Shown here piece after piece: positions 43,094 to 58,128 of a stretch of DNA of 64,000 nucleotides; positions within the stretch are counted from its first letter, which is position 1, and every line of letters starts with the position of its first letter. This DNA is from Candidatus Methanosuratincola mesotaenarum (lineage in GTDB: Archaea; Thermoproteota; Methanomethylicia; Methanomethylicales; Methanomethylicaceae): positions 323,127 through 387,126 of the forward strand of contig JAULTC010000002.1 in the NCBI GenBank assembly GCA_038801705.1, in the 5' to 3' direction. The notes under the pieces are model-generated. The model searched no databases and was not told the DNA's origin. It was given only the letters and a program-made list of their open reading frames with translations. A program made the position numbers and the translations under genes.

Positions 43094-43648
43094 ATGTTTT
43101 TGGCAAGGAAGCAGAACAGCTTTTACGCTTATGTATGCATGGCGATAACCCTCGTTGTTCTCCTTGCAATAGCGGTTGTGGCGTTCAACTACATCGCCCC
43201 GGGGCTTTCAGGCATTGATGTCGGCGCCGGGCAGCAGGAGCCCGGACTCGTGCCGGTGAAGATAGTCAACAAGCCAACCCTGACAATAACGGCCATGGAC
43301 CGCAACGGCAACATCATCAGCGACTCGGGCCCGTTCAACATGATCGGCCTCGCGGGCGCCCAGTTCACGGTCAACGTCGTCAACACCGAAGCCGACAGCG
43401 GCTGGAATGCCACCTGCAGCCCGATTGACAGGGCCAACCTCGGCCTGGCGGCAGTGACGACACCCAGCAGAACTCCTGCAGCCCCTTCTTTGAGTAGGGC
43501 CGAGGCGGAGGAGGCGTTTGTCATCTTCGGTCAGTTGCTCCATCAGTTGCCACACGAGCCTGCCCCTCCGGCGACCGCGCCGGCAGTCCGTTGCGGCATG
43601 AGACACATGACCGCCAAGGCAAGGCGCTACTTGTTGTGGGCTTTGTAG
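43094..43648 (+). CDS. Hypothetical membrane-anchored protein, possibly a fragment
   Basis: N-terminal TM helix and plausible beta-rich sequence up to about 43465; low-complexity tail afterwards. Confidence 0.35.
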
Positions 43649-44115
43649 TAATTTACGAGCCCGCCGCTTTTGAGTATTTCCTGCAGGAAGGGCGGCAGCG
43701 GCGCGGACCTTAGCGCCCCATTCTTGGTCTTCACGCCCCCGGAGTCCAGGTCGATCTCGATGACGTCCCCCTCCCCTACCGCCTTGCTGATGCCCTTCGC
43801 CTCTATCAGTGGCAGGCCGTTGTTTATCGCGTTCCGGAAGAATATCCTCGCGAACGACTCAGCGACGACAGCCGCCGCGCCTGCCCACTTTATCGCGAGC
43901 GCCGCCTGCTCCCTGCTTGATCCGCAGCCGAAGTTCTTGCCGGCAACGATTATGTCGCCCGGCTTTATCTTGGAGCTGAACTCCGGATCCAGCCCCTCGA
44001 GCACGTGCTTCGGCCAGACGGTCTTGTCGACCGACCTTAGGTACTTGGCAGGGATTATGACGTCGGTGTCGACGTCGTCCCCGAACTTCCACACCCTCCC
44101 CTTGAGCACTACCAT
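43627..44115 (-). CDS. leuD: 3-isopropylmalate dehydratase/homoaconitase small subunit
   Basis: [39 protein letters not shown]. Confidence 0.93.
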
Positions 44116-44117
44116 CA

Positions 44118-45353
44118 CTAAACCCTCCTCGGATCAGTTATCTTGCCCTCTATGGCGGATGCCGCGACCGCCTGCGGCGACGCAAGGTAGACGGAGGAGC
44201 TCCTCGCCCCCATGCGGCCTATGAAGTTCCGGTTGGACGTCGATATGCAGACCTCGTTCTCTCCTATGACGCCCATGTGTACGCCGAGGCAAGGTCCGCA
44301 GCCGGTGACCCCTATTATTGCGCCCGCCTCGAGGAATACGTCCAGGAGGCCGTCCCTCTGAGCGTCGATATAGGTCTCCTTCGACGCAGGGATCACGATC
44401 ATGCGGGTGTCGCGGTGTATCTTCCTGTGCCGGAGCAGCCGCGCCGCCTCGTAGAGGTCCTCGTACCTGCCGTTGGTGCAGGAGCCGAGGAACGCCTGGT
44501 CTATGTGGACGCCCTCGACCTCGGATATCGGCTTGACGTTGGCGACGCTCCCGGGGCACGCAACCTGCGGCTCCAGCCTTCCGGCGTCGACCTCGATCTT
44601 CGGAACGGGGTGGTCGGTCTTGAACCTCTTGCCGTCAGGCCGGTTGAGGAAGACCGCGGTCTTGTCGTCGGCTTCGATGAAGCCGGTCTTTGCACCCATC
44701 TCGACCGCCATGTTGGACATGGTCATCCTTGATGCCTGGGACATCGCCTTGACCGCCCCACCGGCGAACTCCAGCGCCTTGTATGTCGCGCCGTCTGTGC
44801 CTATGACCCTGACGATCTCGAGGATCAGGTCCTTCGATGACACTCGGTCGTCCAGGACGCCCGCGCACTCCACCATGAGCGTCTCGGGAACCTTCATCCA
44901 CGTCTTGCCGGTCGCGAGTATGTAGGCAAGGTCGGTCGCGCCGACGCCGGTCGAGAAGATGCCGAAAGCCCCAAGGGTGCACGTGTGCGAGTCCGCGCCG
45001 AAGACGATCTGCCCAGGAGCAACATAGCCCTTCTCAGGTATGACCTGGTGGCATATCCCGTCGCCGAGGTCGTGGAAGCGCGGAATCCCCTGGGCGCGCG
45101 CGAACCGCCTGACCTTCGCCTGTAGGGTCGCGCCTTGGTCGTTGTACGGTGGCACGGAGTGGTCGAAGACGATGCCGACCTTCTCCTTGTCATTTATCCG
45201 GTCTACGCCCATCTCATCGAGGGCGTCGATGACGAGCGGCCCGGTCCCGTCGTGGAAGTATGCGAAGTCGACGGGGGCATCGACGAACTCCCCTTCGCTG
45301 ACCTTCCTTCCGAGGGCGCTCGAGATGATCTTTTCGACAGCCGTGCTGCCCAT
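44118..45353 (-). CDS. leuC: 3-isopropylmalate dehydratase/homoaconitase large subunit
   Basis: DSHTCT.GA, GSCTNGR, GCGPCLG, STSNRNF.GRMG; start set at ATG 45353. Confidence 0.93.
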
Positions 45354-45475
45354 TGCAATTACCCCACGTATAGAGCGCCGGTCGAATATTTCTAGTTGTT
45401 GATTCTGCAACTGCCGAACCGGCTGCGGGGGGCGCATTGATTCAGGGGAACGCCATTATTACATTTTATTATGCG

Positions 45476-45492
45476 TTATGACAGCATCATAA
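45476..45492. promoter_or_regulatory. Palindrome TTATGA-N5-TCATAA upstream of the glutamate synthase operon
   Basis: Perfect inverted repeat just 5' of a BRE/TATA-like AAATAGGTCTTTATA. Confidence 0.55.
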
Positions 45493-45551
45493 ATAGGTCT
45501 TTATAGCCTGATGCGGAGTCTGCATTGCTTCATCAAAAAGAGGCGGTTCTA

Positions 45552-46463
45552 ATGTGCGGAATAGCAGGAGTCGTGTTCGACGGCACCGGCGAGACAGGAA
45601 CCCTACTTATGACGATGCTCAGGGGGCTGCAGCACAGGGGATTGGATTCGGCAGGCGCAGCGTTCTTCAACACTGAGGTCAGGGGCGATGACGAGTATGT
45701 CATAAGGGTCTTCACGAAGGACGCCGTTGGTGTCATCAGCAAAGTATCCACAGCGATTGCTGAGGCGGGCGGCGACATCCGGAACATCAGCATAAAGACG
45801 ATGAACGGCTATGGCTTCGACAGGTACATCATTAAGGCAAAGGATGTAGATGTGAGGCGCATCGTTGATAAAATCAACGGCACCGAGGTCTCCAAGGTCC
45901 TGAGCGCGGGCAGGAGGATGGACATAATCAAGGACGCGACGACCGTAGACGAGCTGGACAGCAACTTTGAGCTCAGCAAGTTCTCTGGGACCCATGCGAT
46001 AGGGCACGTCCGGTTCTCCACCGAGAGCAAGGTGGACCTGCTGCATGCCCACCCGTTCCAGTCGTTCGACCACCTTGACGTGGCGCTGGTCCACAATGGC
46101 CAGATAACCAACTACTGGAAGAGCAGGGAGAGGCTTGAGAGGCGGGGGTTCAAGTTCCAGACTAACAACGACTCCGAGCTGATAGTCCACTACATAATCG
46201 AGAAGCTGAACGAAGGGGATGGGCTCTCGGACGCGCTTGAGGCGTCCGTGGCTGACCTTGACGGGCCTTTCTCGTACATCGTGTCCACCGGCACCGAGGT
46301 CGGCATGGTCAGAGACAAGCTAGGGCTCAGGCCGATGGTGCTCCTGGAGGGGGGCAGCATAAGAGCCGTAGCGTCGGAGGAGAGCGCCCTGAGGATGCTA
46401 GGCAAGGGAGGTACCGTGAGGAACGTAAAGCCGGGGGAGGCGGTCGTATGGTCAGCGAGGTGA
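45552..46463 (+). CDS. Class II glutamine amidotransferase (GltB1/GlxB) with ACT-like insert
   Basis: MCGIAG N-terminal Cys, HRG.DSAG, GHVRFST, AHPF, HNGQITN, DSE. Confidence 0.9.
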   Translation: MCGIAGVVFDGTGETGTLLMTMLRGLQHRGLDSAGAAFFNTEVRGDDEYVIRVFTKDAVGVISKVSTAIAEAGGDIRNISIKTMNGYGFDRYIIKAKDVDVRRIVDKINGTEVSKVLSAGRRMDIIKDATTVDELDSNFELSKFSGTHAIGHVRFSTESKVDLLHAHPFQSFDHLDVALVHNGQITNYWKSRERLERRGFKFQTNNDSELIVHYIIEKLNEGDGLSDALEASVADLDGPFSYIVSTGTEVGMVRDKLGLRPMVLLEGGSIRAVASEESALRMLGKGGTVRNVKPGEAVVWSAR

Positions 46464-48583
46464 AGGTCATAGACGGGGCAAGGGGCACGACGCGCGAGCT
46501 GAACGAGGCGCTCAGGGCGGTTGCCGGCGCACTCGGGACCGGCGAGGCGGAGGCGGTTGCGATAAATGAGCCTGGGGGCCGCCACCACATAGCGGCCGGG
46601 CTTACGGGGCGGCTCTTGATAGAGGTCAGAGGCCCGGTCGGATACTTCGCAGGGACGATGATAGACGGCCCAAATCTGACAATCAGTGGCAACGCGGGAT
46701 GGTTCCTCGGAGACAACATGACCCGGGGTAGCATAAGCGTCGGCGGGCACGCCGGGAATGGTGCGGGCCAGGGCATCTACGGAGGCAAGATCGTGGTCAC
46801 GGGTGACGCCGGCGACAGGGTCGGTGCGCTCATGAAAGGTGGGACCGTCATAGTCGGTGGAGGCACGGGGATAATGACGGGGCTTTACATGATGGGCGGG
46901 GAGGTGATAGTGCTGGGCAGGCTGGGTGACTACGCCGGCGAGTCCATCATGGGCGGCAGGATCTTCTTCGGTGGCGGGGTTCCGGTGCTAGGTAAGAACG
47001 CGAAGGTGGAGGCCGCGACCCGTGATGAGGTGGACCACGTGGCGTCGGTCGTCTCGGGCACGGGGCTGATGGTCCCTGACGACCTCAGCAAGATAGTGCC
47101 GGAGAACCCAAGGTACTTCGTGAAGATGGATAGCGGCGCCATTAACGGCAGGAGGGAGAGGCTGAGGCACATGGTCACGATAGACCACGGCGTCTGCAGG
47201 GCCTGCGGGGTGTGCCAGAAGGTCTGCCCGCAGGGCGTCTTCAGGATGGCCAAGCCGGACTACATGGCGCCCGTCAACGACATGGAGTGCGTCGGCTGCG
47301 AGGTCTGCGTCGAGCTGTGCACCTCAAGGGCGATCAGGGTGATGCCGGTGCCGGAGCCGCCCAAGGGGAACTGGAGCGGGCGCGACATCAACGACCTGCA
47401 GCTCAAGGCGTCGAAGGGCCACACCCCGGTGAGGGGGATGGGGGCGTGGCAGAGGTTCCCGCACTTTGACGACCTTGTATTCCTCTGCGCCCAGAACTCG
47501 AGGCCGCCAATCGACCACTACAGGGAGCCGTGCAGCACCGAGGTTGTCCTTGGGGCGAGGTTTGCTGAGAGACCGCTCAGGCTGAAGGCGCCTATAATAA
47601 TTGGGGCGATGTCGTTCGGGGCGGTGAGCAGGGAGGTAAAGCTCGCAGTGGCGAGGGCGGCGACGAGGGTCGGGATAGCGACCAACACCGGAGAGGGGGG
47701 CATGCTGAAGGACGAGAGGGGGGCTGCATCGACTCTGATAGCGCAGTATGCCTCCGGCAGGTTCGGGGTTTCGGCTGCCTACCTGCAGATGGCGGATGCC
47801 ATAGAGATAAAGATCGGGCAGGGGGCGAAGGGCGGGCAGGGGGGGCTCCTCATGGGGGAGAAGGTCACGGAGGAGGTCGCGCAGGTGAGAGGCATACCCA
47901 TCGGGGCGGATGCGGTGAGCCCTGCGCGGCACCTAGATATCGTCGGACCGGAGGACCTCAAGATGAAGATAGAGCAGCTAAGGGAGATAACCGACTGGAA
48001 GGTCCCCATAGCGGTCAAGTACTCTGCGGGCAGGGCGGGTGACGACGCCAAGATTGCGGCGAAGGCCGGTGCAGACATAATAGTAATCGATGGAAAGCAG
48101 GGAGGGACTGGCGCAGCTCCCGAAATAGTCATAGAGCATGCAGGTCTGCCAACGCTGCCTGCCCTCGTCGAGGCGGAGAGGGGGCTGAAGGAGGTGGGCT
48201 TGAGGGATGAGGTGAACCTCGTGATCTCCGGTGCGATAAGGAACGGGGCTGACATCGCGAAGGCGATTGCGCTCGGGGCGGACGCCGTAGCGATGTCGAC
48301 CGGCGTGCTCGTAGCTATGGGATGCAGGATATGCGGCCTCTGCTCAACCGGCAGGTGCCCGCGCGGTATAGCCACGCAGGACCCGGCGCTTAGGAGGAGG
48401 CTGAGGGTCGACGATGCCGCCCAGAGGGTTGAGAACTACCTGAACGCGACGATAGAGGAGCTCGAGATGTTCACGCAGCTCTCCGGGAAGACCTGCGCGA
48501 GCAACCTGGACCGTGATGACCTGAGGGCACTGACTGCGGACGCTGCAGCCATCTCCGGAGTCAGGCTTGCTGGCACTGATTAG
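46448..48583 (+). CDS. Glutamate synthase fusion: GXGXG domain + ferredoxin + FMN-binding domain
   Basis: GXGXG repeats in the first 220 aa, CRACGVC/CVGCEVC, AMSFGA, NTGEGG, EIKIGQGAKGGQGG, CRICGLCSTGRC. Confidence 0.9.
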   Translation: MVSEVKVIDGARGTTRELNEALRAVAGALGTGEAEAVAINEPGGRHHIAAGLTGRLLIEVRGPVGYFAGTMIDGPNLTISGNAGWFLGDNMTRGSISVGGHAGNGAGQGIYGGKIVVTGDAGDRVGALMKGGTVIVGGGTGIMTGLYMMGGEVIVLGRLGDYAGESIMGGRIFFGGGVPVLGKNAKVEAATRDEVDHVASVVSGTGLMVPDDLSKIVPENPRYFVKMDSGAINGRRERLRHMVTIDHGVCRACGVCQKVCPQGVFRMAKPDYMAPVNDMECVGCEVCVELCTSRAIRVMPVPEPPKGNWSGRDINDLQLKASKGHTPVRGMGAWQRFPHFDDLVFLCAQNSRPPIDHYREPCSTEVVLGARFAERPLRLKAPIIIGAMSFGAVSREVKLAVARAATRVGIATNTGEGGMLKDERGAASTLIAQYASGRFGVSAAYLQMADAIEIKIGQGAKGGQGGLLMGEKVTEEVAQVRGIPIGADAVSPARHLDIVGPEDLKMKIEQLREITDWKVPIAVKYSAGRAGDDAKIAAKAGADIIVIDGKQGGTGAAPEIVIEHAGLPTLPALVEAERGLKEVGLRDEVNLVISGAIRNGADIAKAIALGADAVAMSTGVLVAMGCRICGLCSTGRCPRGIATQDPALRRRLRVDDAAQRVENYLNATIEELEMFTQLSGKTCASNLDRDDLRALTADAAAISGVRLAGTD

Positions 48584-48640
48584 CCCAGCATTGACGCAGG
48601 CACCGCCTTTTTTTATTCGCCTACGCCTAGCCTATGGCGG

Positions 48641-49168
48641 CTACCTCACGATGATGCGCAGCTTGGTCAGGTCTTCTTTTATCTCGCATTCCTTGTGTAT
48701 GGCGCGGAGCACCTCCTCAAGGAAGGTCTTGGTGAAGCGCTTCAGCTCGTCGCTCCCGAATACCAATATGAAGTTGTCGCCGGACTGGGAGAGCCTGAAG
48801 AAGTTGCATGCCTCAAGACGCTCAAGAATCTGCCTAACGCTCATCCCCCGAAACTGCTCCGAGTGGTTCCTCGCCACGGTCCGGTGCGAGGCGTCCCAGA
48901 CCTTTGAGGTCTCGCTCGATCCTTCCGCTATCTTGAGGAGCGTGATAAGGTGGTCGAGGTCCAGTATGACGTGCTCGCCGCTGGAGAGCATGTCGTAGTA
49001 GACCCTCACGTTTCCCAGATCGTGCTCGTCCATCCCTTTAAAGGAGTGGTAGAGCTTTAGGGCCTTCCTTATTATGCTGCTTTGCGACTCTCCGCCCTTC
49101 ACTAGCTCTTCAAAATACTTCTCAGTAGCCTCGTCAAGGGCAATGCTAGTTCTTCGGGGAGGTGCCAT
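48641..49168 (-). CDS. Ribbon-helix-helix (CopG-like) regulator with C-terminal ligand-type domain
   Basis: RTSIALDE...SQSSIIRKAL RHH pattern; divergent from amt. Confidence 0.8.
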   Translation of the reverse strand: MAPPRRTSIALDEATEKYFEELVKGGESQSSIIRKALKLYHSFKGMDEHDLGNVRVYYDMLSSGEHVILDLDHLITLLKIAEGSSETSKVWDASHRTVARNHSEQFRGMSVRQILERLEACNFFRLSQSGDNFILVFGSDELKRFTKTFLEEVLRAIHKECEIKEDLTKLRIIVR

Positions 49169-49201
49169 AGAATATTAGGTCACCAATCTCCCATAAATAT
49201 T

Positions 49202-49218
49202 TTATTATTTTTTCATAA
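49202..49218. promoter_or_regulatory. TTATTA-N5-TCATAA, second copy of the candidate operator
   Basis: One mismatch from the 45476 palindrome; in the RHH/amt divergent promoter region. Confidence 0.45.
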
Positions 49219-49321
49219 AAAATATGAACCGTTATCTAAAAATAAACCGTTTTAATAAATATTCTTTTATATTTTGTAGCTTATCTTCGATAGAATGTCA
49301 TAATGGAATGAAGGTTGGATA

Positions 49322-50659
49322 ATGAAATACAAACTATTGAAGATAGCGGCCATCAGTCTCCCGGTCATGTGCATACCAGGGACGGTCTCCGCCGCTGAAT
49401 ATGGTCCAGTGAACGCGATAGACAACACATGGATACTCTTGGCGGCATTCCTAGTCTTCTTCATGAACTTGGGGTTTGCCATGCTGGAGACGGGGATGCA
49501 ACGGGCCAAGAACGCCAGCAACATATGCATGAAGAACCTGATCACGCCGGTCATAGGCGCCATAACGTTCTTCATAGTAGGGTTCACGCTGGCATTCGGC
49601 ACGGACATCGCAGGATTCACGGGCAGCATTGCAGACTTTCCATTGCTCAACGCGATTTCGACGGGCGACATATGGACGGGCACGAACGTTACAACGTATG
49701 CGTTCTTTGTCTTCCAGACGATGTTCGCCGCGACGGCAGCTACCATAGTGTCCGGCGCAGTCGGCGAGAGGATCAGGTTCTCAGCCTACCTGCTGTTCAC
49801 GGCAGTCATCCTTGCCGGAATCTACCCCTTTGTCGCCCACTGGATATGGGGAGGCGGGTGGCTCTTCGACCTTGGGATGATCGACTTCGCGGGCTCCACC
49901 GTCGTGCACCTCGTGGGGGGAGGGGCGGGGCTGGCGGGCGCCATCGCCCTCGGTCCGAGAATCGGCAAATACTTCAACGGCAAGGTCAACATCATACCAG
50001 GCCACAGCATCACGCTTGCGACGATAGGAGGGCTTGTGCTATGGTTCGGTTGGTTCGGGTTCAATCCGGGCAGCACCGCGTCTGCGTCTGTGCCTAGCAT
50101 AGCGACTATCGCGATCACCACAAACATAGCGGCTGCCGGTGGAGCGATTGCGGCAATGGCAACGTCGTGGATAAGGAGCGGCAAGCCTGATGTAGGCATG
50201 ACCATAAACGGCCTCCTCGTGGGGTTGGTTGCCATCACTGCAGGCTGCGCTAGCGTCAGCCCAGCGAGCGCCCTCATAATAGGCCTCATCGCAGGCGTGC
50301 TGGTCGTGCTCGCCGTTGACTTCATAGACAGGGTGCTCCGGATTGACGACCCGGTCGGTGCGGTATCGGTCCACGGCGTAGGAGGTGCCTTCGGGACGCT
50401 CATGGTAGGAATCTTCGCGGATGCCACATACACGGGTGGCGCAAGCGGGCTCCTCTTCGGCGGCGGATTGGCGCAGCTGGGGGTGCAAGCGCTGGGGGTC
50501 GCATCGGTCTTCGCCTTCGTCTTCGCGAGTTCGTACATCGTCTTCAAAATTATAGACAAGGTCATGGGACTCAGGGTCAGCGAGGAGGACGAGATCAGGG
50601 GGCTCGACGTATCGGAGCACGGCATGGTCGCCTATCCGGACTTCGAGGTTCCGTCTTGA
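49322..50659 (+). CDS. amt: Ammonium transporter
   Basis: FQTMFAA, DFAGSTVVH, WFGWFGFN, DDPVGAVSVHG (twin His intact). Confidence 0.96.
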   Translation: MKYKLLKIAAISLPVMCIPGTVSAAEYGPVNAIDNTWILLAAFLVFFMNLGFAMLETGMQRAKNASNICMKNLITPVIGAITFFIVGFTLAFGTDIAGFTGSIADFPLLNAISTGDIWTGTNVTTYAFFVFQTMFAATAATIVSGAVGERIRFSAYLLFTAVILAGIYPFVAHWIWGGGWLFDLGMIDFAGSTVVHLVGGGAGLAGAIALGPRIGKYFNGKVNIIPGHSITLATIGGLVLWFGWFGFNPGSTASASVPSIATIAITTNIAAAGGAIAAMATSWIRSGKPDVGMTINGLLVGLVAITAGCASVSPASALIIGLIAGVLVVLAVDFIDRVLRIDDPVGAVSVHGVGGAFGTLMVGIFADATYTGGASGLLFGGGLAQLGVQALGVASVFAFVFASSYIVFKIIDKVMGLRVSEEDEIRGLDVSEHGMVAYPDFEVPS

Positions 50660-50666
50660 GGGGGTG

Positions 50667-51071
50667 ATGAGAGTGAAGCTGATAATCGCGTACATCAAGC
50701 CTGAGAAGCTGGAGGACGTCAAGAAGGAGCTCAGCGCAAGGGAGGTCTTCAGGATGAGCGTCTCCAAGGCGAAGGGATGCGGCGAGACCAGGGGCTATGT
50801 CGCCAGCTACAGGGGCATTAAGAAGGACGTCTACCTGCTCCCGAAGCTGAGGATCGAGATCGCCGTCAATGACGACTTCGTGGACGTCGTGACCGATGGC
50901 ATCCTCAAGGCGGCGAAGACCGGGACCATTGGCGACGGGAAGATCTTCGTGGTGCCCATGGAGGAGTGCATCCGGATAAGGACCGGCGAGCGCGGACCCA
51001 ACGCAATAGGCGGTAGGAGCAAGTTTGCGACCAAGTTCAACGGAGAGGCGCATGGTCAGACGGCAAATTGA
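50667..51071 (+). CDS. glnK: PII nitrogen regulatory protein
   Basis: AYIKPEKL, GCG T-loop, LLPKLRIEI, TGTIGDGKIFV, RIRTGERG. Confidence 0.95.
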   Translation: MRVKLIIAYIKPEKLEDVKKELSAREVFRMSVSKAKGCGETRGYVASYRGIKKDVYLLPKLRIEIAVNDDFVDVVTDGILKAAKTGTIGDGKIFVVPMEECIRIRTGERGPNAIGGRSKFATKFNGEAHGQTAN

Positions 51072-51251
51072 GGCGTAGCACTGCATAAATGTCCGGGACG
51101 CGGAGGGGCGCGCAGGCGTGCTGAGCTTAGGGTCTTGGCGCATCGGCAGATGCGTTTCAGCCGCCGGTTCAGCTTCCGTCGTCCCCGGACTCCTTTTTGT
51201 CGTCATGAGCAATAGCATTTCAGTTATTAAAACGCTTAGACTCTGCATCTT

Positions 51252-52007
51252 TTAGAAATTAAAAAGTTTGCTCTCGAAGCACTGGATCACTTGATTCTTC
51301 CCCTTTTTGACAACGGAGTGACCCTCTGCCTCCAAAAGCCGCTTCTGGGACTCTACACCCCCGGGGTATTTCTCGTTAATAGCCCCCCCGCTCTTCAGTG
51401 TCCTCCAGTATGGGATGCTCTCTGAGGCGCCCTTCTGCTTGGCCTCCTCTGCGGCATTTGCGGCGACCCACGCGAATATCCCGGTCGAGACAAGCAGGGA
51501 CTTGGGGCACTCCGGCTTCTCCTCGAACCCGATGATCTTCGAGGAGCTGTCGATGGTGACGCATGCATACTTCTTTGCTAGCTCCTTGCTGCGGACGTTA
51601 TAGAGGGCGACGACGGGTGATCGGACGGTCTTGAAGAACGCGGCCATCTTGACCAGGTCTAGCGAGAAGAGGTTGTCGCCTGCAGCTATTAGGTAGTCAT
51701 CGGGCACGGCGCCCCTCATTATGATGCTGAGCGCCTTCGTCGGACCCAGCTTCTCCTCCTCGCTCGCCGACGGCTCCACTACGACCCTGGCGTTATTGAT
51801 GCCCCGGAGCCCTATCCACTCAGCAAACTTTCCTTCGAACTTCTTGTTCGTCGAGATTATGGTCTCTTCGGGTTTGAGGGGCTTGATCTTTGCCATTATG
51901 AAGTCAAGGATCGTTCCGTCTCCAATAGGCAGGAGGGGCTTCGGCGTATCCAGAGTGAGGGGCCAGAGCCGCTTGGCGTATCCGCCTGCTAGGATTATGG
52001 TTCTCAT
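51252..52007 (-). CDS. Chimeric ORF: sugar-phosphate nucleotidyltransferase N-part + alkyltransferase-like (MGMT family) C-part
   Basis: ILAGGYAKRLWPLT..PKPLL through EEKP...STGIF, then AWVAANAAEE...PYWRTLK.GG.INEKYPGG...LLEAEG. Confidence 0.7.
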   Translation of the reverse strand: MRTIILAGGYAKRLWPLTLDTPKPLLPIGDGTILDFIMAKIKPLKPEETIISTNKKFEGKFAEWIGLRGINNARVVVEPSASEEEKLGPTKALSIIMRGAVPDDYLIAAGDNLFSLDLVKMAAFFKTVRSPVVALYNVRSKELAKKYACVTIDSSSKIIGFEEKPECPKSLLVSTGIFAWVAANAAEEAKQKGASESIPYWRTLKSGGAINEKYPGGVESQKRLLEAEGHSVVKKGKNQVIQCFESKLFNF

Positions 52008-52184
52008 GACATCTGCCCACCTGGTTAATCTCAGGCGCAGATGGTATAAATCTGTGATGGGGTGCAGCGGGGAGCCCGTTGCCGGAGGGGCGGAATCTCT
52101 TTAAGGGCGGGCGGCGTTGGGGGATAGCGGTGCCCATCAGGAAGGGTGCACGTAAGTAAGTAAGTCACTGAAAGGCGAAGATCG

Positions 52185-52655
52185 ATGGCGGACCTCTCCC
52201 AACTGTTCAACATCTTCATTCTCGCTATATCTCCGGTCGTCGAGTGCAGGGGGTCGATACCGTACGGCATAGTTGCCGGGGTAGACCTCCCGACCGTGCT
52301 GCTCGTCACTCTGGTTGGGAACTGCCTGCCGGTGCCTTTCCTGCTCCTCTTGCTGAAGACCGTGGAGGGGTGGCTGATGCGGAGGGGAGACTCGAACCCA
52401 CTTAAGCGCCTATTCATAAGGTATGTGGAGTCGCTTCGGAGGAGGAGCCGCGACCAAGTTGAGAAGTATGGGTTCTTGGGGCTAGTGCTCTTCGTTGCGA
52501 TTCCTGTGCCTGGGACTGGGGCATGGACCAGCAGCATCGTCGCATACCTCTTCGGCATGGAGTGGAAGAGGTCGCTTGCTGCGATAGTCATTGGCGTGTT
52601 ATGCGCAATGGCTATAGTGACCGTGCTCACGCTCGCGGTAGGCGTCGTTTTGTAG
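52185..52655 (+). CDS. COG2426 small membrane protein (putative small multidrug export family)
   Basis: PVVECRGSIP, FVAIPVPGTGAWT. Confidence 0.85.
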   Translation: MADLSQLFNIFILAISPVVECRGSIPYGIVAGVDLPTVLLVTLVGNCLPVPFLLLLLKTVEGWLMRRGDSNPLKRLFIRYVESLRRRSRDQVEKYGFLGLVLFVAIPVPGTGAWTSSIVAYLFGMEWKRSLAAIVIGVLCAMAIVTVLTLAVGVVL

Positions 52656-52844
52656 CCCTGCTTAACTTGATTTTTCTTACGGCGTTTGAGCTGTCAAGAG
52701 CGCCGCTAAGCGTCGTGCGGTTTTAGGAGCGCGGCGCCGCGCAAATGCCGGGACCGTAAGGGTTGGCGTTCACAACGGTCAGGCTTGTGCATAAAGGCAG
52801 GGTTATGCCCTTAGGTGGATGGTAAATCTAAGGGGGGGCGCCGG

Positions 52845-53942
52845 TCAGATCTTATCGACGACCTCGACCCATAGGCGCATCTTTTCTAGCTGGAGCGCCA
52901 TGAATTTTCGATAGTTCTCGTCGGAGATGGCGCGCATTCCCTTCTCCAGCAACCCTGCCAACGATAGGTAGGCGTCGGCGTAGGTCTTGCCGGTCAGGTC
53001 GCCGTCCACTATCTGCCATAGGCTCTCGTTCAGGATCATGCCGTCCATCTCCTTCTTAAGGTCCTTGAAGACGCTGCGGGGCCGCTTGTCGTGCGTCCCG
53101 GCTGGCTTGCCTAGAGAGACCTTGTCTCCAAGGTGGTCGGCGATGCGCTTGACGAATATGCCGGACCATATGTCGTCGAACCGGTCAATGCCCATGGTGT
53201 TCATATATAGCTGGTAGAAGGCGGGGATTACCTTGGGGACGAAGGATGTGTTCATGCTGCAGACTGCGAAGTATGTCCCCCCATCTGCTATGACCTTATC
53301 ACGGTTGAGCGAGACCCCCTTTACACCGCATCTGCCGTCCATGCCGCCGTTGTAAAGGATCGTCAGCGCATCGAAGTCAGGATTCCCGAGCCAGTGCCCC
53401 ATGTTGACGACGCATCTGCCGCCCGAGGACCGCCACTCGTAATTCTCTGCCCTCTGCTCGCGGGAGTAAGGGTGCCCTCGGGGGAAGAACCTCCCGGGCG
53501 CGCCCATAGCGATCATGTCTAGGGAGTTGTACCACCTCGATGGCGAAGAGACGGTCACGCCGCCATCCCCGAAGAGGTTCTCCCTATGCCCTGCGATGAG
53601 GTTGCTTATGATGACGTCGTCGTCCAGCTCGACGATGAAGTCCGCCCCCTCCTCGAGGGCAACCAGAAAGCCGAAGGACGTCTCGGCGTGCGCCCTCTCC
53701 GGGATGACGGAGAGGTATCGGCAGTAAGGCGCCCCGAACCGCTCCTTGAACCAGTCGGCGCGCTCGGAAGGACCGTAGTACTCGATCGGGACGCCGCTCA
53801 GTATGCGGCTGTTACGCTCCCGCATGGCGGCGCTGCCCTCGTCTACGACCACAACGCGGGTTCCCGTCGCCATTAATTCGTCGGTCAGCCCCCTCAGGTT
53901 GTCGAGCTCATTGATGGTGGCTACGACCAGGAACGGCTTCAT
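52845..53942 (-). CDS. Reversibly glycosylated polypeptide / UDP-sugar mutase (GT75-like)
   Basis: SFGFL, LDDD, FPRGHPY, NMGHW, CSMNTSF, RFDDIWSG. Confidence 0.78.
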   Translation of the reverse strand: MKPFLVVATINELDNLRGLTDELMATGTRVVVVDEGSAAMRERNSRILSGVPIEYYGPSERADWFKERFGAPYCRYLSVIPERAHAETSFGFLVALEEGADFIVELDDDVIISNLIAGHRENLFGDGGVTVSSPSRWYNSLDMIAMGAPGRFFPRGHPYSREQRAENYEWRSSGGRCVVNMGHWLGNPDFDALTILYNGGMDGRCGVKGVSLNRDKVIADGGTYFAVCSMNTSFVPKVIPAFYQLYMNTMGIDRFDDIWSGIFVKRIADHLGDKVSLGKPAGTHDKRPRSVFKDLKKEMDGMILNESLWQIVDGDLTGKTYADAYLSLAGLLEKGMRAISDENYRKFMALQLEKMRLWVEVVDKI

Positions 53943-53974
53943 GCAAAAAAGAAGGGCTGAGGGAGATTAAAAGA

Positions 53975-55159
53975 CTATCCTATCAGTTTGACAAGAACAT
54001 CCCTCAGGTGCTCCAGGTCGCTAAGGTGGACGAACTCGTCGGTCCCGTGGAACTGTGTGTCGTCAGCGATTGCGCCATAGCTGACCACAGGTATCCCGCG
54101 CTCAGACAGAAACTTGCCGTCGTCGCCGCCCAGCGATGCGGCTATCGGCAGAGGCTGCCCGAAGACGGCGGAGGCGGCCTCTGAGAACGCCCTCACGAAA
54201 GGCGTGGATGCCGCGGTTACGAAGCCGGGGTCTTCGTAGTCGAACGTCAGCGCGGCATTCATGCCAAGCCTCTCCTTGGCCCTCTCGAAGTAATCCAAGA
54301 ACTCTGACTTCGCCTCGAGCGGCTCTTCGTCTGGCAGGAGGCGCAGGTCGAACCGTGTCCACGCCAGGGCGGGCACAACGTTCTCCTTCTCCCCACCTCC
54401 TATCACCGTGAAGGATATCCGGCCCCAGAGCTTCTTCTTGGGCGACATGGGAGGGGCGTCTATGGCTGAGAGCTTCTGCTCCCGCTGCTTTACGAAGCCC
54501 TCGAGCTCGACGAGCAGTCTCGCCAGCTTTGGTATGGGGTTGTCCGCAAGGTAATTGTAGCCCGCGTGCCCCTGCTTGCCGAAGACCTTGATCTCGCCGG
54601 TCATTCTGCCGCAGGCGCCGATCCCCACCATGTTAGGCATCGAGTCTACAACTACGCCGCAGTCCATCTTGAGCCGGACGTCCCTCATGAGGTAGCCGAT
54701 CCCCCAAACGCCGCCTATCTCCTCGTCCGGGGATGCCGCCATCAGGACGTTGTACTTCACGCCCTTGCCAAGCAACCTAAGCGCGCCGAGCGATGCGGCA
54801 ATTGCGGACTTGCCCTCGGCCACGTTGCCCGTCTTAAAATCGTGGTGCGCCTTGGCAGCCTTGATGTAGTTGTTGGCATGGCCCCTGTCGACCGAGCGGA
54901 GGGACTTCCTGATCGATTCTGGTGTCACTTCCGGGCCTACTGCCTCAGGCAGGCGCCTGACCTTTGCGCGGTACTGCAGAGCCGTGACTCTGGCGAGTCC
55001 CAGATCCACGGTGCAGAAGTCCACGAATCTATCCAGCTTTTGTACTGTAGTCAATTTTGTTTGGGGTCCTTTTTTGATGAAACTTTTTTCATTTGGGATG
55101 TAAGAAAGGGCTAAAAAAGTTTCAATGGCGGGCCTGAAGGGATTTGAACCCTTGGCCAA
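53975..55159 (-). pseudogene. Chimeric ORF: integrase int(C) fragment fused to an N-truncated M20 (ArgE/DapE) peptidase
   Basis: Starts inside tRNA-Lys; SAM-like integrase sequence to about 54812, then KSAIAA, DEEIGG, GHA, FDLR, FHGTDE. Confidence 0.7.
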
Positions 55160-55202
55160 TGGGTTAAGAGCCCATCGCTCTACCGTACTGAGCTACAGGC
55201 CC
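55126..55202 (-). tRNA. tRNA-Lys(CTT)
   Basis: GGGCCTG/CAGGCCC acceptor, ATGGG-CTCTTAA-CCCAT, encoded CCA. Confidence 0.96.
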
Positions 55203-55271
55203 GTCCGACTTTTCCATTCAGGAGGAGTAATTTAAAAGTATCGCTCTATCTGATAACCATTCATTGAGCAA

Positions 55272-56081
55272 TTGGTGAGTGAAAGAAAGATGCCTTCCCT
55301 GACATTTGTAGGGCTTGGGCTCAACGACGAGAGGGGTATTAGCCTCCACGGGCTAGAGCGCGCCAGGGCCGCGGATCTTGTATTGCTTGAACACTATACG
55401 AACGTGATGCCCGGCCTGAGCCTGGAATCCTTGGGCAAGCTGGTCGGTAAAGAGATCCGGGTGGTCGGCAGAAGGGAAGTCGAGGATGGCAGGGAGATCC
55501 TGGATGCCGCCTCCAGAAGCGAGGTCGCGCTGTTGGTTGCCGGCGACCCATTTGTTGCGACCACCCACGTCGATCTGAGGCTCAGGGCGATCAAGAGGGG
55601 CATACGGATTGAGGTGGTGAACGCTCCCTCGATCATTTCCGTCGCGCCGGGCGCCGTGGGGCTGCAGAACTACAAGTTCGGGCGGTCCGCCACGATCACG
55701 TTCCCCGAACCGCTCTCCTTCGTCCCATACGATGTCCTCAGGGTCAACAGGGATCTAAGGCTGCACACGCTCTTCTTCCTCGACCTCCGCCTGGAGGAGG
55801 GCAGGTTCATGAGGGCAGGCGAGGCGGTCCGCCTCCTCCTCGAAATGGAGGCACAGCAGAAGGGCGGCGTCGTCTCGGAAGGCATGCTCATGGTCGTCCT
55901 GGCTAGGGCTGGGTCTCCATCCCAGATCGTTCGAGCAGGGAGGGCTATCCAACTTGCGGACTTGGACTTCGGTCCCCCTCCCCACTCGCTAATAGTCCCT
56001 GGGCGCCTCCACTTCATGGAGGCAGAGGCACTGGTACTCATCGCCGGCGCAGACGAAGACCTCGTGAGGGGATGCCTGTGA
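55272..56081 (+). CDS. dph5: Diphthine synthase
   Basis: FVGLGL, LEHYT, GDPFVATTH, LQNYKFGRSATI, HTLFFLD, PPHSLIVPG.LHF.E. Confidence 0.95.
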   Translation: MVSERKMPSLTFVGLGLNDERGISLHGLERARAADLVLLEHYTNVMPGLSLESLGKLVGKEIRVVGRREVEDGREILDAASRSEVALLVAGDPFVATTHVDLRLRAIKRGIRIEVVNAPSIISVAPGAVGLQNYKFGRSATITFPEPLSFVPYDVLRVNRDLRLHTLFFLDLRLEEGRFMRAGEAVRLLLEMEAQQKGGVVSEGMLMVVLARAGSPSQIVRAGRAIQLADLDFGPPPHSLIVPGRLHFMEAEALVLIAGADEDLVRGCL

Positions 56082-56368
56082 GCTTTGAGGAGGACGCTAG
56101 AAAGAAGCTCGAGAGGTACATCGCAGCGACGGAGAGGGTCTTCAGGACGATGGAAGTCCTGTTTCCCGAGGACGCTTCACTGAGGAAGCAAGCCAAAGAG
56201 AACCTCAGGCTCTCCAGAATCTACTTCGAGGACAGCAAGTATTATTTCGGGAAGCAGGACTATATTACTGCGCTTGTCTGCATAGCTTACTGCGAGGGAA
56301 TAATCGATGCGTGCAGGAACATGGGCTGGCTTAGATACGAGTGGACCTTCGGGGCCACGCCCAATTGA
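56072..56368 (+). CDS. DUF357 protein
   Basis: YFEDSKYY, ALVCIAYCEGIIDA. Confidence 0.85.
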   Translation: MPVSFEEDARKKLERYIAATERVFRTMEVLFPEDASLRKQAKENLRLSRIYFEDSKYYFGKQDYITALVCIAYCEGIIDACRNMGWLRYEWTFGATPN

Positions 56369-56414
56369 GCAGATTTCCGGATTGGTGGGGGTGGACTGAA
56401 CGGGGAAGCGCGTC

Positions 56415-56825
56415 TTGGCAGCGGGGTGCTTCGATCTCCTTCACTATGGGCACCTGCGTTACCTCGAGGAAGCCAAGAAGCTTGCGGGCGAGGGCGGTGA
56501 GCTGATAGTGGTCGTGGCCAGGGATGCGACGATTCTGAAGAGGAAGGGTCGACCCCCAGTGATGGGTGAGGAGCACAGGCGGGAGCTGGTCGAGGCGCTG
56601 AAGCCGGTCGACCGCGCGTTCCTAGGTAGCGTCGACTTCGACACTAAGGCAGTCCTGGAGTCGATAGCGCCGAATGTCATCGCCCTCGGGTATGACCAGG
56701 AGGACCTGTCCGACCTACTCAGGAGTGGGGGATTCAGGGGTGAGATCGTCCGACTGGGGAAGTACGGCGACATCAGTTCCTCGAAGATAAGGGCGCTCCT
56801 GAACTCCGCGGCGAAGCTTAGATGA
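56415..56825 (+). CDS. ribL: FAD synthase (cytidylyltransferase family)
   Basis: GCFDLLHYGH, VVVARD, LKPVD, IALGYDQ, SSSKI; next to riboflavin kinase. Confidence 0.85.
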   Translation: MAAGCFDLLHYGHLRYLEEAKKLAGEGGELIVVVARDATILKRKGRPPVMGEEHRRELVEALKPVDRAFLGSVDFDTKAVLESIAPNVIALGYDQEDLSDLLRSGGFRGEIVRLGKYGDISSSKIRALLNSAAKLR

Positions 56826-56831
56826 TCTTTC

Positions 56832-57524
56832 TTACTGCACGTGGTCGCGGCTCAGGTAGACCTTCAGTTGGACCATGTCCCCATCCCTGAGCCCTAACCT
56901 CTTCCTCAGGTTATCCGGGGCGATTATCTCCAACACTTCCTTCCCGTAGTGTGTCCGGTGTATCATCAGTACCGCCCCGTCCACAGCGTCGTTCACCTTC
57001 GCTAGGAAGCACTTCACGTCACCGTAGGTCCTCTCCGAGTTCGTGAAGCCCTTGATCGTGATCCCGGGCAGCGCCTCGAGCTCCGCCCTCGCCCTTATGT
57101 CTGCCGCGGACCTGAGCCTAAGGTTCAGCGTACCTGGGAACGGGGCGAAACCGAGCTTCTCGGAGAACTGCTCCCTGTAGCCGTTCTTCGTGACGTAGTA
57201 GGCACCCTCGCCGAAGCCAGAGAAGACGTTGCCGTTGAGGAACTTGACGTTATCAACGCCCTCCAGTCCCATCCTGAGGGTGTCGTAGACCTCCCTTATC
57301 GCGCCAATCCCCTTCTCGGTTATCATCACAAGCTGCCCGTCGGGCGTCAGTTCCCTGGTCACGAACCCCCTTTCCGCGAGCTCCAGGAGGCGCCTCGAGG
57401 CTGTCTGCTGCGAGATGCCAATCATCCTCCCAAAGTCCGAGGTGCCGATCAGTATCTGCCTTGTGTGCCCCCCCATCCTGAAGATCTGGAGGAGCGCGAA
57501 CCAGAGATCACCTTCCAGCTCCAA
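56832..57524 (-). CDS. ribK: CTP-dependent riboflavin kinase with N-terminal wHTH
   Basis: SQQTASRRL, SGFGEGAYY, PFPGTLN, RTHY, LEIIA...LR. Confidence 0.93.
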   Translation of the reverse strand: MELEGDLWFALLQIFRMGGHTRQILIGTSDFGRMIGISQQTASRRLLELAERGFVTRELTPDGQLVMITEKGIGAIREVYDTLRMGLEGVDNVKFLNGNVFSGFGEGAYYVTKNGYREQFSEKLGFAPFPGTLNLRLRSAADIRARAELEALPGITIKGFTNSERTYGDVKCFLAKVNDAVDGAVLMIHRTHYGKEVLEIIAPDNLRKRLGLRDGDMVQLKVYLSRDHVQ

Positions 57525-57525
57525 T

Positions 57526-58128
57526 TCAGGGTCTGCCCTCCATGGCTCGCTTACTGTAGAGATCCGCGAGAAATAAAGGCTCTGGTAGCCGGTGCCCCCT
57601 CATGCATGCCCTCGCCACCTCCTCCGCGAGTCTTGGGCTCATCCTGTGACCCACAGAGACGAAGACCTTCCTTCCGCTCCGTGTCCGGATGACTGCCCCG
57701 ACCTCCCTCCCGTCTGCAACAAGGCGGTCCCCCTCCACCGATCCGCCGCTGAACGAGAGTGGGGAGAGGCAGACGCCGATTGTGGGTATATCGAAGGCGA
57801 TGCCGAAATGCGACGCAGCCCCGAGCCCCTCTGGGTGGAATGTCCCGTGTCCGTTCACCATGTAGACCGAAGCCCTCGTCCTGAGCTTCCTGAAGAGCGG
57901 GACGAGGAACCGCATCTCCCTGAAGGCGAGAAAATAAGGCATGTACGGGACTAATGCCATCCCCGTGTCGGTCGAGACCTCGACCTCATCTAGGCCCGGG
58001 TACCTCAGCACTACGCCTGCGGCGAAGCCCTCCTCGCCCCTGTACGCGATATCCATGCCGCAGACCGAGGAAACCTCCCCGGGAGGCGAGAACGAGACCT
58101 TCCTAGCAAGGAGGCGCTGGGCGTTCAC
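57526..58128 (-). CDS. nfi: Endonuclease V
   Basis: GMDIAY, PY.PYFLAFRE, VNGHG.FHP, G.ASHFG, FVSVGH, PEPL..AD. Confidence 0.88.
   Translation of the reverse strand: MNAQRLLARKVSFSPPGEVSSVCGMDIAYRGEEGFAAGVVLRYPGLDEVEVSTDTGMALVPYMPYFLAFREMRFLVPLFRKLRTRASVYMVNGHGTFHPEGLGAASHFGIAFDIPTIGVCLSPLSFSGGSVEGDRLVADGREVGAVIRTRSGRKVFVSVGHRMSPRLAEEVARACMRGHRLPEPLFLADLYSKRAMEGRP

Follow-up and report, generated by a model that had tools for sequence, protein, structure and literature searches.

The stretch of DNA analysed here, 64,000 nucleotides in length (the window), comes from Candidatus Methanosuratincola mesotaenarum (assembly GCA_038801705.1, contig JAULTC010000002.1, positions 323,127 to 387,126), a member of the class Methanomethylicia (Verstraetearchaeota). 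The element under study is a gene for a ribbon-helix-helix (RHH) protein, P0001, that lies between the glutamate synthase genes (gltB) and the divergent genes for an ammonium transporter and a PII protein (amt-glnK), together with palindromic repeats in the promoter DNA on both sides. A preliminary description of the window had proposed that this protein controls gltB, amt-glnK and itself through the operator TTATGA-N5-TCATAA. By comparing the locus with its relatives in other archaea we arrive at a revised form of that proposal: the RHH protein is likely to bind phased arrays of short half-sites and to control amt-glnK, its own gene and, in this genome, also gltB.

Genes and promoter elements of the locus

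The genes of the locus are as follows, in window coordinates.

44118-45437, minus strand: aconitase-family gene (Pfam)
45553-46463, plus strand: glutamate synthase amidotransferase subunit, a class-II glutamine amidotransferase (GATase) that starts MCGIAG (Pfam GATase_6/7 and ACT)
46448-48583, plus strand: glutamate synthase large subunit (Pfam Glu_synthase, 1e-121; GXGXG; Fer4)
48641-49168, minus strand: RHH protein P0001, 175 aa, with the RHH in residues 1-46, a helical linker and an alpha/beta C-terminal domain
49322-50659, plus strand: ammonium transporter Amt (Pfam Ammonium_transp, 3.8e-126)
50664-51071, plus strand: PII protein GlnK (Pfam P-II, 4.7e-23), encoded by the sole PII gene found in the genome

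Glutamate synthase is split over two genes, and the domains of the large subunit stand in the order GXGXG, Fer4 (4Fe-4S) and Glu_synthase (flavin mononucleotide). By the N-terminal cysteine rule the amidotransferase subunit would start at the ATG at 45553; an ACT domain is inserted near its N-terminus (residues 58-96, Pfam) and hints at allosteric control by an amino acid. The closest copies of the locus are found in a metagenome-assembled genome (MAG) of Candidatus Methanomethylicus oleisabuli (98%) and then in Candidatus Methanosuratincola genomes (~60%).

The four sequence elements on which the proposal was built were read again from the sequence and sit exactly where they had been placed: TTATGAcagcaTCATAA, a perfect TTATGA-N5-TCATAA at 45476-45492; TTATTAtttttTCATAA, a one-mismatch copy of it at 49202-49218; TTCATAaaaaaTATGAA, the palindrome TTCATA-N5-TATGAA at 49212-49228; and a lone half-site. 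The one-mismatch copy and the second palindrome are two registers of a single 10-bp array, and the promoter elements can be listed as below, where BRE is the recognition element of transcription factor B (TFB).

45456-45492, no strand: operator array at the gltB promoter (TTATTA 45456, TTATTA 45466, TTATGA 45476, TCATAA 45487)
45500-45506, plus strand: putative gltB TATA box, TTTATAG, 7 nt past the last half-site and invariant in four genomes
49194-49201, minus strand: putative RHH-gene TATA box, ATATTTAT, at a distance of 26-33 nt from the ATG and kept in all aligned operators
49202-49237, no strand: operator array in the divergent RHH/amt spacer (TTATTA 49202, TTCATA 49212, TATGAA 49223, TTATCT 49232)
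49238-49246, plus strand: alternative TATA-like box for amt, AAAAATAAA, directly abutting the fourth half-site
49255-49272, plus strand: candidate BRE/TATA of amt, AATAAATATTCTTTTATAT, ~27-36 nt past the core dyad and conserved in relatives
49298-49303, plus strand: lone half-site TCATAA

In the RHH/amt spacer the first half-site, TTATTA at 49202, overlies the BRE of the RHH promoter, and the short distance from TATA box to ATG implies that the RHH mRNA is probably leaderless. The half-sites at gltB are spaced 10-11 bp apart, the last two making up the perfect palindrome, and AATAGGTC, between the last half-site and the TATA box, fills the BRE position.

Taken by itself, this genome says little about whether the palindromes exceed chance. 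With up to two mismatches TTATGA-N5-TCATAA has 5 matches in the window against 1.31 expected (5 were reached in 1 of 100 shuffles). The perfect forms TTATGA-N5-TCATAA and TCATA-N5-TATGA each occur once in the whole 1.46-Mb genome, where base composition alone would give an estimated ~0.8 (about one) perfect copies, and the Y/R-degenerate dyads have 3 and 8 matches genome-wide against ~4.1 and 3.3 in shuffles. Among these degenerate dyads, only the gltB and RHH/amt sites fall in AT-rich intergenic DNA. Since the count in one genome is near chance, the weight rests on the position of the sites and on their conservation in other genomes. The lone TCATAA at 49298, which the preliminary description had named, finds no support as part of the operator: it is not conserved in relatives and stands at chance level in AT-rich DNA (an estimated ~0.2 such hexamers are expected in the spacer).

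Linkage of the RHH gene to amt

A scan of the genomes of 185,579 species returned 112 relatives of the protein, of which 79 loci were kept; they belong to Methanomethylicia, Archaeoglobi, Bathyarchaeia and Hadarchaeota. Of these loci, 46 have an amt gene within 6 kb of the RHH gene and 49 have a nitrogen-assimilation gene of some kind, with many contigs ending early; besides amt, the neighbours are often glnK, gltB or glnA. Within the same taxonomic family the RHH protein is present in 15 of 24 genomes, in most of which the gene points away from amt-glnK and has gltB and the aconitase gene as neighbours, and the isolates Archaeoglobus veneficus and A. sulfaticallidus also carry it divergent from amt-glnK. 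Five genomes of the family that lack the RHH gene (90-97% complete) yielded no amt either. An NrpR domain is found neither in this genome nor in 16 RHH-positive relatives, two of them closed genomes.

One genome of the family, G019, has amt without the RHH gene. An Lrp-like gene stands in its place beside amt, and the dyad described below is missing ahead of amt; this Lrp-like gene may be a non-orthologous replacement of the regulator. The spacer between amt and the divergent Lrp-like helix-turn-helix (HTH) gene (L131 1262-1480) holds a different palindrome, GGAAATGT-N6-ACATTTCC.

Variants of the gene were also noted. Three Archaeoglobaceae loci (L061, L069, L072) have a second RHH paralogue past amt-glnK, so that the operon is bracketed by two family members. 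The RHH orthologues of G014 (L027 ~1725-2225) and G021 (L033 8357-8645) contain an in-frame TAG, which could mean a pseudogene, read-through or pyrrolysine; in G021 the RHH gene is truncated as well, next to an intact amt-glnK-gltB. A diverged subclade (G011, G013, G014) has RHH proteins of 47-49% identity, and no amt was found in its genomes (79-92% complete). In G011 (L030 6719-10211) the RHH neighbours are AIM24, NUDIX and an Obg-like GTPase.

A phased candidate operator conserved in two phyla

Every 5-mer dyad in the 200 nt upstream of the RHH genes was counted, with no motif preset. TCACA-N5-TGTGA ranked first among the dyads not of low complexity (8 loci against 0.0 expected), and its reverse register, TGTGA-N5-TCACA, was found at 5 loci. 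When Y/R degeneracy and one mismatch were allowed, 8 of the 13 loci from Methanomethylicia had the dyad (0.7 in shuffles), as did 15 of the 32 from Archaeoglobi (1.5 in shuffles), and in 20 of these 23 dyad-bearing loci, from both phyla, it lies 57-59 nt ahead of the RHH start codon. A gapless alignment of 21 operator sites reads ATAA, 3 bases, TTCAYA, N5, TRTGA, N5, TC(A/G)YAAAA and then the RHH TATA box, so that the third half-site, which abuts this box, overlies the BRE/TATA of the regulator's own promoter. A fourth conserved element, TTATC(A/T), stands one turn past the dyad on the amt side in both phyla. From these alignments the predicted operator is a set of three or four TCAYA/TRTGA half-sites at 10-bp spacing. 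The palindrome family named in the preliminary description is thereby retained, but its conserved core is TTCAYA-N5-TRTGAA with flanking half-sites rather than TTATGA-N5-TCATAA.

The position of the operator is specific. In G002, G004 and G010 the 17-bp dyad occurs once per genome, each time in the RHH/amt spacer, and in A. sulfaticallidus, where the spacer is long, it remains with the amt promoter. The array in the window is the top genome-wide match of two position weight matrices (PWMs), one built from Methanomethylicia and Archaeoglobi operators (24.1 bits) and the other from Bathyarchaeia sites alone (20.1 bits).

The same array in another gene order

Bathyarchaeia have the RHH gene in second place behind an Lrp/AsnC gene; no operator is therefore expected directly upstream of it, and no dyad was found upstream of the Bathyarchaeia RHH genes. 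The PWM from the other two lineages gave matches of ~11-27 bits in 24 Bathyarchaeia loci, in 23 of which the match lies 50-70 nt past the RHH stop codon (~440 nt in L101). Behind these sites stand amt, a KaiC-like ATPase gene (PF06745) followed by amt, an amino-acid permease gene or an Lrp gene. The 23 promoters follow a fixed plan, TTTCATA-N5-TATGAAC-AAA-TCAYAA-CTAT-N2-TTTATAT, in which the array runs up to the TATA box. It was the PWM made from these sites that again ranked the RHH/amt spacer of the window first among all genome positions. One locus, L089 (5509-9686), has a second strong site at 8330 (24.8 bits) ahead of a CitMHS-type transporter gene.

The Lrp/AsnC gene directly before the RHH gene in Bathyarchaeia, and the Lrp-like gene divergent from amt in G019, raise the question whether some other factor, an Lrp/AsnC protein for example, binds the dyad, with the RHH gene a mere neighbour. 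We consider this highly improbable: the Methanomethylicia and Archaeoglobi loci carry the dyad without an adjacent Lrp gene, G019 with Lrp and without RHH lacks it, and the dyad follows the RHH gene through all changes of gene order and lies partly over the RHH promoter. A spacing of one DNA turn between half-sites of either orientation is moreover typical of RHH proteins (Arc, MetJ, CopG, omega).

The gltB site and the extent of the regulon

The gltB promoter reads TATGA-cagca-TCATAA-ATAGgtc-TTTATAG, and the geometry from half-site to TATA box matches that of the 23 Bathyarchaeia promoters; in the amt promoters of Geoglobus the dyad has the same register as here. A composite pattern that joins the dyad to a TATA-like box 3-10 nt away has one match in the genome, at gltB. 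The first PWM, from the RHH operators of other genomes, placed the gltB site sixth genome-wide (11.8 bits), and the Bathyarchaeia-only PWM did not pick it up. Among the relatives the site is identical only in G018, with 1 mismatch in G024 and 3 in G009, and its flanks are equally conserved among these three genomes. No site was found at the gltB promoters of Methanosuratincola, Archaeoglobi and Hadarchaeota, nor in other lineages that have a separate gltB.

The gltB palindrome might on these grounds be a chance occurrence in an AT-rich promoter, the RHH/amt spacer being the only target and the "regulon" a single divergent locus. The copy number expected from base composition, the degeneration of the site in G024 and G009 and the absence of sites at other gltB promoters would agree with this. 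Set against it are that the genome has just one other dyad in intergenic DNA, that the site ends 7 nt from a TATA box in the TCATAA-ATAG-TTTATA geometry of the Bathyarchaeia targets, and that gene order offers a reason for its presence: the gltB of Methanosuratincola follows amt-glnK on the same strand (in G021 directly, with a 43-nt gap), so that a site of its own would keep gltB in the regulon after rearrangement. We therefore hold a chance origin to be doubtful. One reading is that gltB was relocated in this clade and that a copy of the array may have kept it under the same control; the support for the gltB site is weaker than that for the RHH/amt site, yet real.

Footprinting upstream of glt, amt and glnA in genomes with this RHH protein, which the preliminary description had suggested as a check, gave an uneven outcome: the operator is conserved at amt in three lineages, but at gltB in the narrow clade only, and at glnA not at all. 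The glnA upstream regions of six genomes lack the dyad and the Bathyarchaeia-only PWM reaches only 7.4 bits there, so glnA was rejected as a member and the regulon appears local rather than global.

Other sites and the origin of the block

A few further sequences came to light in these searches. The second-best match of the first PWM, at G000:C2:27015 outside the window, is the palindrome GGAATTCATATAATTCATGAAT between a thiD-like gene and a divergent gene for an HTH regulator-like protein (from open reading frame translations); it is probably that regulator's own site, concerned with thiamine. Three other PWM matches were rejected as targets, two (G000:C1:26328 and G000:C13:10904) lying inside open reading frames and one (C4:50432) in GC-rich, probably coding DNA. 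In the glnA leader, after the TATA box (G000:C2 248182-248260, L035; L120-L124), there is a block of ~35 nt, AGAAAGATGTTGTT.GGATTGTT.TTTGATCGGTGG, that is near-identical in three Methanosuratincola-type genomes and partly kept in the other three; it has no Rfam match. Rfam likewise gave no match in the amt/RHH locus or elsewhere in the glnA locus.

At the DNA level the aconitase-gltB-RHH-amt-glnK block (window ~43504-54820) shares 97-99% identity with G018, the MAG of Ca. Methanomethylicus oleisabuli. Next to it, window positions 55125-57900 share 80% identity with Methanosuratincola G002 and G004, and for glnA, which the same contig carries, protein identity is 94%. Contig C13 (L034 7055-9459) has a decayed copy of Methanosuratincola type, made up of the aconitase gene, the C-terminal two-fifths of the RHH gene and the tail of gltB. 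The nitrogen block is either a recently transferred island beside a tRNA-Lys/integrase remnant or the result of a chimeric MAG contig.

The RHH protein and its C-terminal domain

Pfam RHH_1 (PF01402) matches all 79 family members (best E 3.4e-10), and a family profile searched against PDB sequences found only RHH proteins, namely CopG (1b01/2cpg, E 0.0055), SeqA-N and ParD-type chains. Among 1.84 billion representatives the family comprises 215 clusters at E <=0.001; full-length members have ~170-200 residues, and shorter clusters match only part of the profile, with no fusion to another domain. A structure model computed from the 79 sequences had a predicted local distance difference test score (pLDDT) of 90.7 and replaced an earlier one from 11 sequences (pLDDT 64). 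Residues 1-50 of the model align to the PutA RHH domain 2rbf (Z 5.7, root-mean-square deviation (rmsd) 2.6, 43 residues) and also to AmrZ, CopA-SO, SvtR and NikR; the RHH strand appears as coil in this monomer model.

The C-terminal domain has no Pfam match in the 79 members and none in NCBIfam, the recent Pfam entry PF27313 being outside the set searched. By fold, its 110-125 residues align to H-NOX 4u99 (Z 7.0, rmsd 3.3, 89 residues), DmpR 6iy8 (Z 7.0, rmsd 3.8, 121 residues), Bet3 2cfh (Z 6.9), PoxR 5fru (Z 6.2) and MJ1460 2oso (Z 5.3), and Z values of 5.3-7.0 over 89-124 residues are in a range that may reflect only a common arrangement. Foldseek against the PDB returned mostly designed proteins, with Bet3 and H-NOX at weak E values of 2e-3 to 2e-2, and neither Pfam V4R nor HNOB matched any of the 79 members. 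An Atlas HNOB cluster has a template modelling (TM) score of 0.47 to the model. Another Atlas cluster, in which 49% of the members carry PF27313 (AF_0136_C), has the same overall shape (TM 0.69 over 161 residues).

Residues invariant over the alignment of the 79 sequences include E65, H66, D70, H73, H102 and C121, and this collection of His, Cys, Asp and Glu suggests a metal or cofactor site. The sensing of 2-oxoglutarate or glutamine, which had been put forward for this domain, is pure conjecture, for which the invariant residues speak no more strongly than for a metal or cofactor. A prediction of an RHH-GlnK complex scored 0.00 without controls and is no evidence either way.

Proposed regulation

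We infer the identity of the binder, the repression and the control by a nitrogen signal. The RHH protein, as a dimer of dimers or a larger assembly, would bind three or four half-sites one turn apart, TCAYA/TRTGA in general and TTATKA in this genome. Dimerisation and sequence-specific DNA contact through paired beta strands would be expected of an RHH protein and have indirect backing from the conserved arrays. In the divergent spacer the array would cover the BRE/TATA of the RHH gene, which points to autorepression, and would also reach towards the amt-glnK promoter, while the copy at gltB would end 7 nt before the TATA box. Transcription would be repressed by blocking the access of TFB and the TATA-binding protein (TBP), with relief when the C-terminal domain, of sensor-like fold, changes state with the nitrogen status of the cell. 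That the embedded RHH protein acts on its own and the amt-glnK promoter and on gltB, as first proposed, is supported by the linkage of the family in four lineages, the fixed position of the operator in two phyla, its recurrence before amt in a third lineage and the joint presence and absence of RHH and amt.

Repression as the sign of this regulation is held with somewhat less assurance, as the more plausible outcome. Arrays abut the TATA box at the RHH gene's own promoter in two phyla, at amt and other uptake genes in Bathyarchaeia and Geoglobus, and at gltB here, and this position fits a repressor that blocks TFB/TBP. The divergent amt promoters are less clear: their best TATA candidate lies ~20-36 nt past the core dyad, which fits an activator as well. 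The protein might then bind upstream of the BRE/TATA at amt, recruit TBP/TFB under nitrogen limitation and still repress its own gene and perhaps gltB, whose array lies over the BRE. Binding just upstream of the BRE is known from archaeal activators such as Ptr2; the 20-36 nt interval is seen at divergent loci of both Methanomethylicia and Archaeoglobi, and the dyad of A. sulfaticallidus stays with the amt promoter despite the long spacer. But the array directly abuts the amt TATA box in Bathyarchaeia and Geoglobus, a repressor geometry, and in the divergent loci a fourth half-site, TTATC(A/T), is conserved and brings the array closer to the amt promoter, so that activation at amt seems to us rather unlikely.

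Besides the placement of the amt TATA boxes and the points raised above for gltB and glnA, several observations weigh against the proposed regulation by the RHH protein. P0001 alone falls below the RHH_1 cut-off (18 against 20.5 bits, E 0.0028); Hadarchaeota and several Archaeoglobi loci have no recognisable dyad; and the diverged Methanomethylicia subclade (G011, G013, G014) has the RHH gene with neither dyad nor amt, so that its targets there must differ.

Significance and comparison with known regulators

What is understood of transcriptional nitrogen control in archaea comes for the most part from methanogens, where NrpR acts with NrpA, and from a few factors of haloarchaea, and we know of no described nitrogen regulator for lineages on the TACK side such as Methanomethylicia and Bathyarchaeia. 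The locus supplies a candidate protein, a defined operator and a small predicted regulon, all of which are open to test in the cultured A. veneficus or A. sulfaticallidus, or on recombinant protein. In archaea that are not in culture the operator can further serve to predict genes of nitrogen uptake, as with the KaiC-like ATPase, the amino-acid permease and the CitMHS transporter in Bathyarchaeia, and the ligand of the C-terminal domain, as a new sensor module, would reveal the nitrogen signal that these organisms read. More speculatively, it is possible, though we would not expect every part to hold, that the family is the missing nitrogen-status regulator of NrpR-less archaea (Methanomethylicia, Bathyarchaeia and also Archaeoglobi), with a new metal or cofactor sensor of H-NOX/V4R-like fold and a phased array that switches ammonium uptake and glutamate synthase; archaea would then have evolved a nitrogen switch a second time, independently, and this one would move along with its targets, even on a transferred island. 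In the literature we found no paper that links a CopG/RHH protein to amt, GlnK or nitrogen control in archaea, and none on the AF_0136_C family (PF27313, Pfam 38.1; uncharacterised archaeal proteins), which our family resembles in overall shape through the Atlas cluster match only. The V4R, H-NOX and Bet3 sensor folds may be related to that of the C-terminal domain, though Z values of 5.3-7.0 could also mean no more than a common arrangement.

The operator of E. coli NikR is GTATGA-N16-TCATAC, with half-sites two turns apart (PMC7055735). NikR, the nickel-responsive RHH repressor of E. coli and H. pylori, resembles the present family in that a small protein joins an RHH at the N-terminus to a C-terminal domain for an effector (a predicted one in our family), and its half-site, GTATGA/TCATAC (PMC7055735), is very similar. 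It represses the uptake system of the nutrient that it senses, and the RHH part of our model aligns to apo-NikR 1q5v (Z 5.1, rmsd 2.9, 44 residues). Unlike those of NikR, the half-sites here are separated by N5 (one turn) and form arrays of three or four, the fold matches of the C-terminal domain are of another kind, and the predicted targets are amt-glnK and gltB instead of nickel transport. NikR_C, the ACT-like nickel domain, had no match in the 79 members at E <=5, and the fold match to NikR is limited to the RHH part.

A CopG/ParD type II antitoxin was rejected as an identity for P0001: its neighbours are gltB and amt with no adjacent toxin gene, and NCBIfam ParD scores 17 bits (E 0.0044) against a cut-off of 46.2. 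In A. veneficus a ParE gene lies 2 kb off, beyond amt-glnK and not adjacent to the RHH gene. That the protein is nevertheless a NikR-like metal sensor or such an antitoxin, close to amt by coincidence, could draw on the TATGA half-site, the invariant residues able to bind metal and the weak ParD match. This explanation is hardly credible in view of the spacing, the lack of NikR_C and of a toxin gene, and an amt linkage over four lineages with joint absence that is not incidental.

NrpR is the 2-oxoglutarate-responsive euryarchaeal repressor of nif, glnA and amt, and it binds palindromic operators in promoters. As an archaeal nitrogen repressor it is the functional analogue of the protein predicted here from sequence. 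The two differ in build, NrpR consisting of an HTH and the NRD domain PF01995, which was not found in the RHH protein, whose RHH is joined to a new domain. They differ also in operator (GGAA-N6-TTCC for NrpR) and in glnA, which is outside the predicted regulon here. Arc, MetJ, CopG and omega are RHH proteins that bind as dimers, cooperatively, on short repeats at successive DNA turns and often regulate their own genes, and omega accepts both direct and inverted repeats. The arrays described here share with their sites the spacing of one turn and both orientations. Those proteins have 45-105 residues and no sensor domain, or a co-repressor at the RHH itself (MetJ), whereas the present family has a conserved extra module of ~125 residues and, as predicted, chromosomal nitrogen-gene targets in archaea. 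The family meets the defining features of neither NikR nor NrpR and is closest to NikR in architecture and half-site and to NrpR in role; what is new is probably the combination of an RHH repressor carrying a new sensor domain with a predicted nitrogen-uptake regulon.

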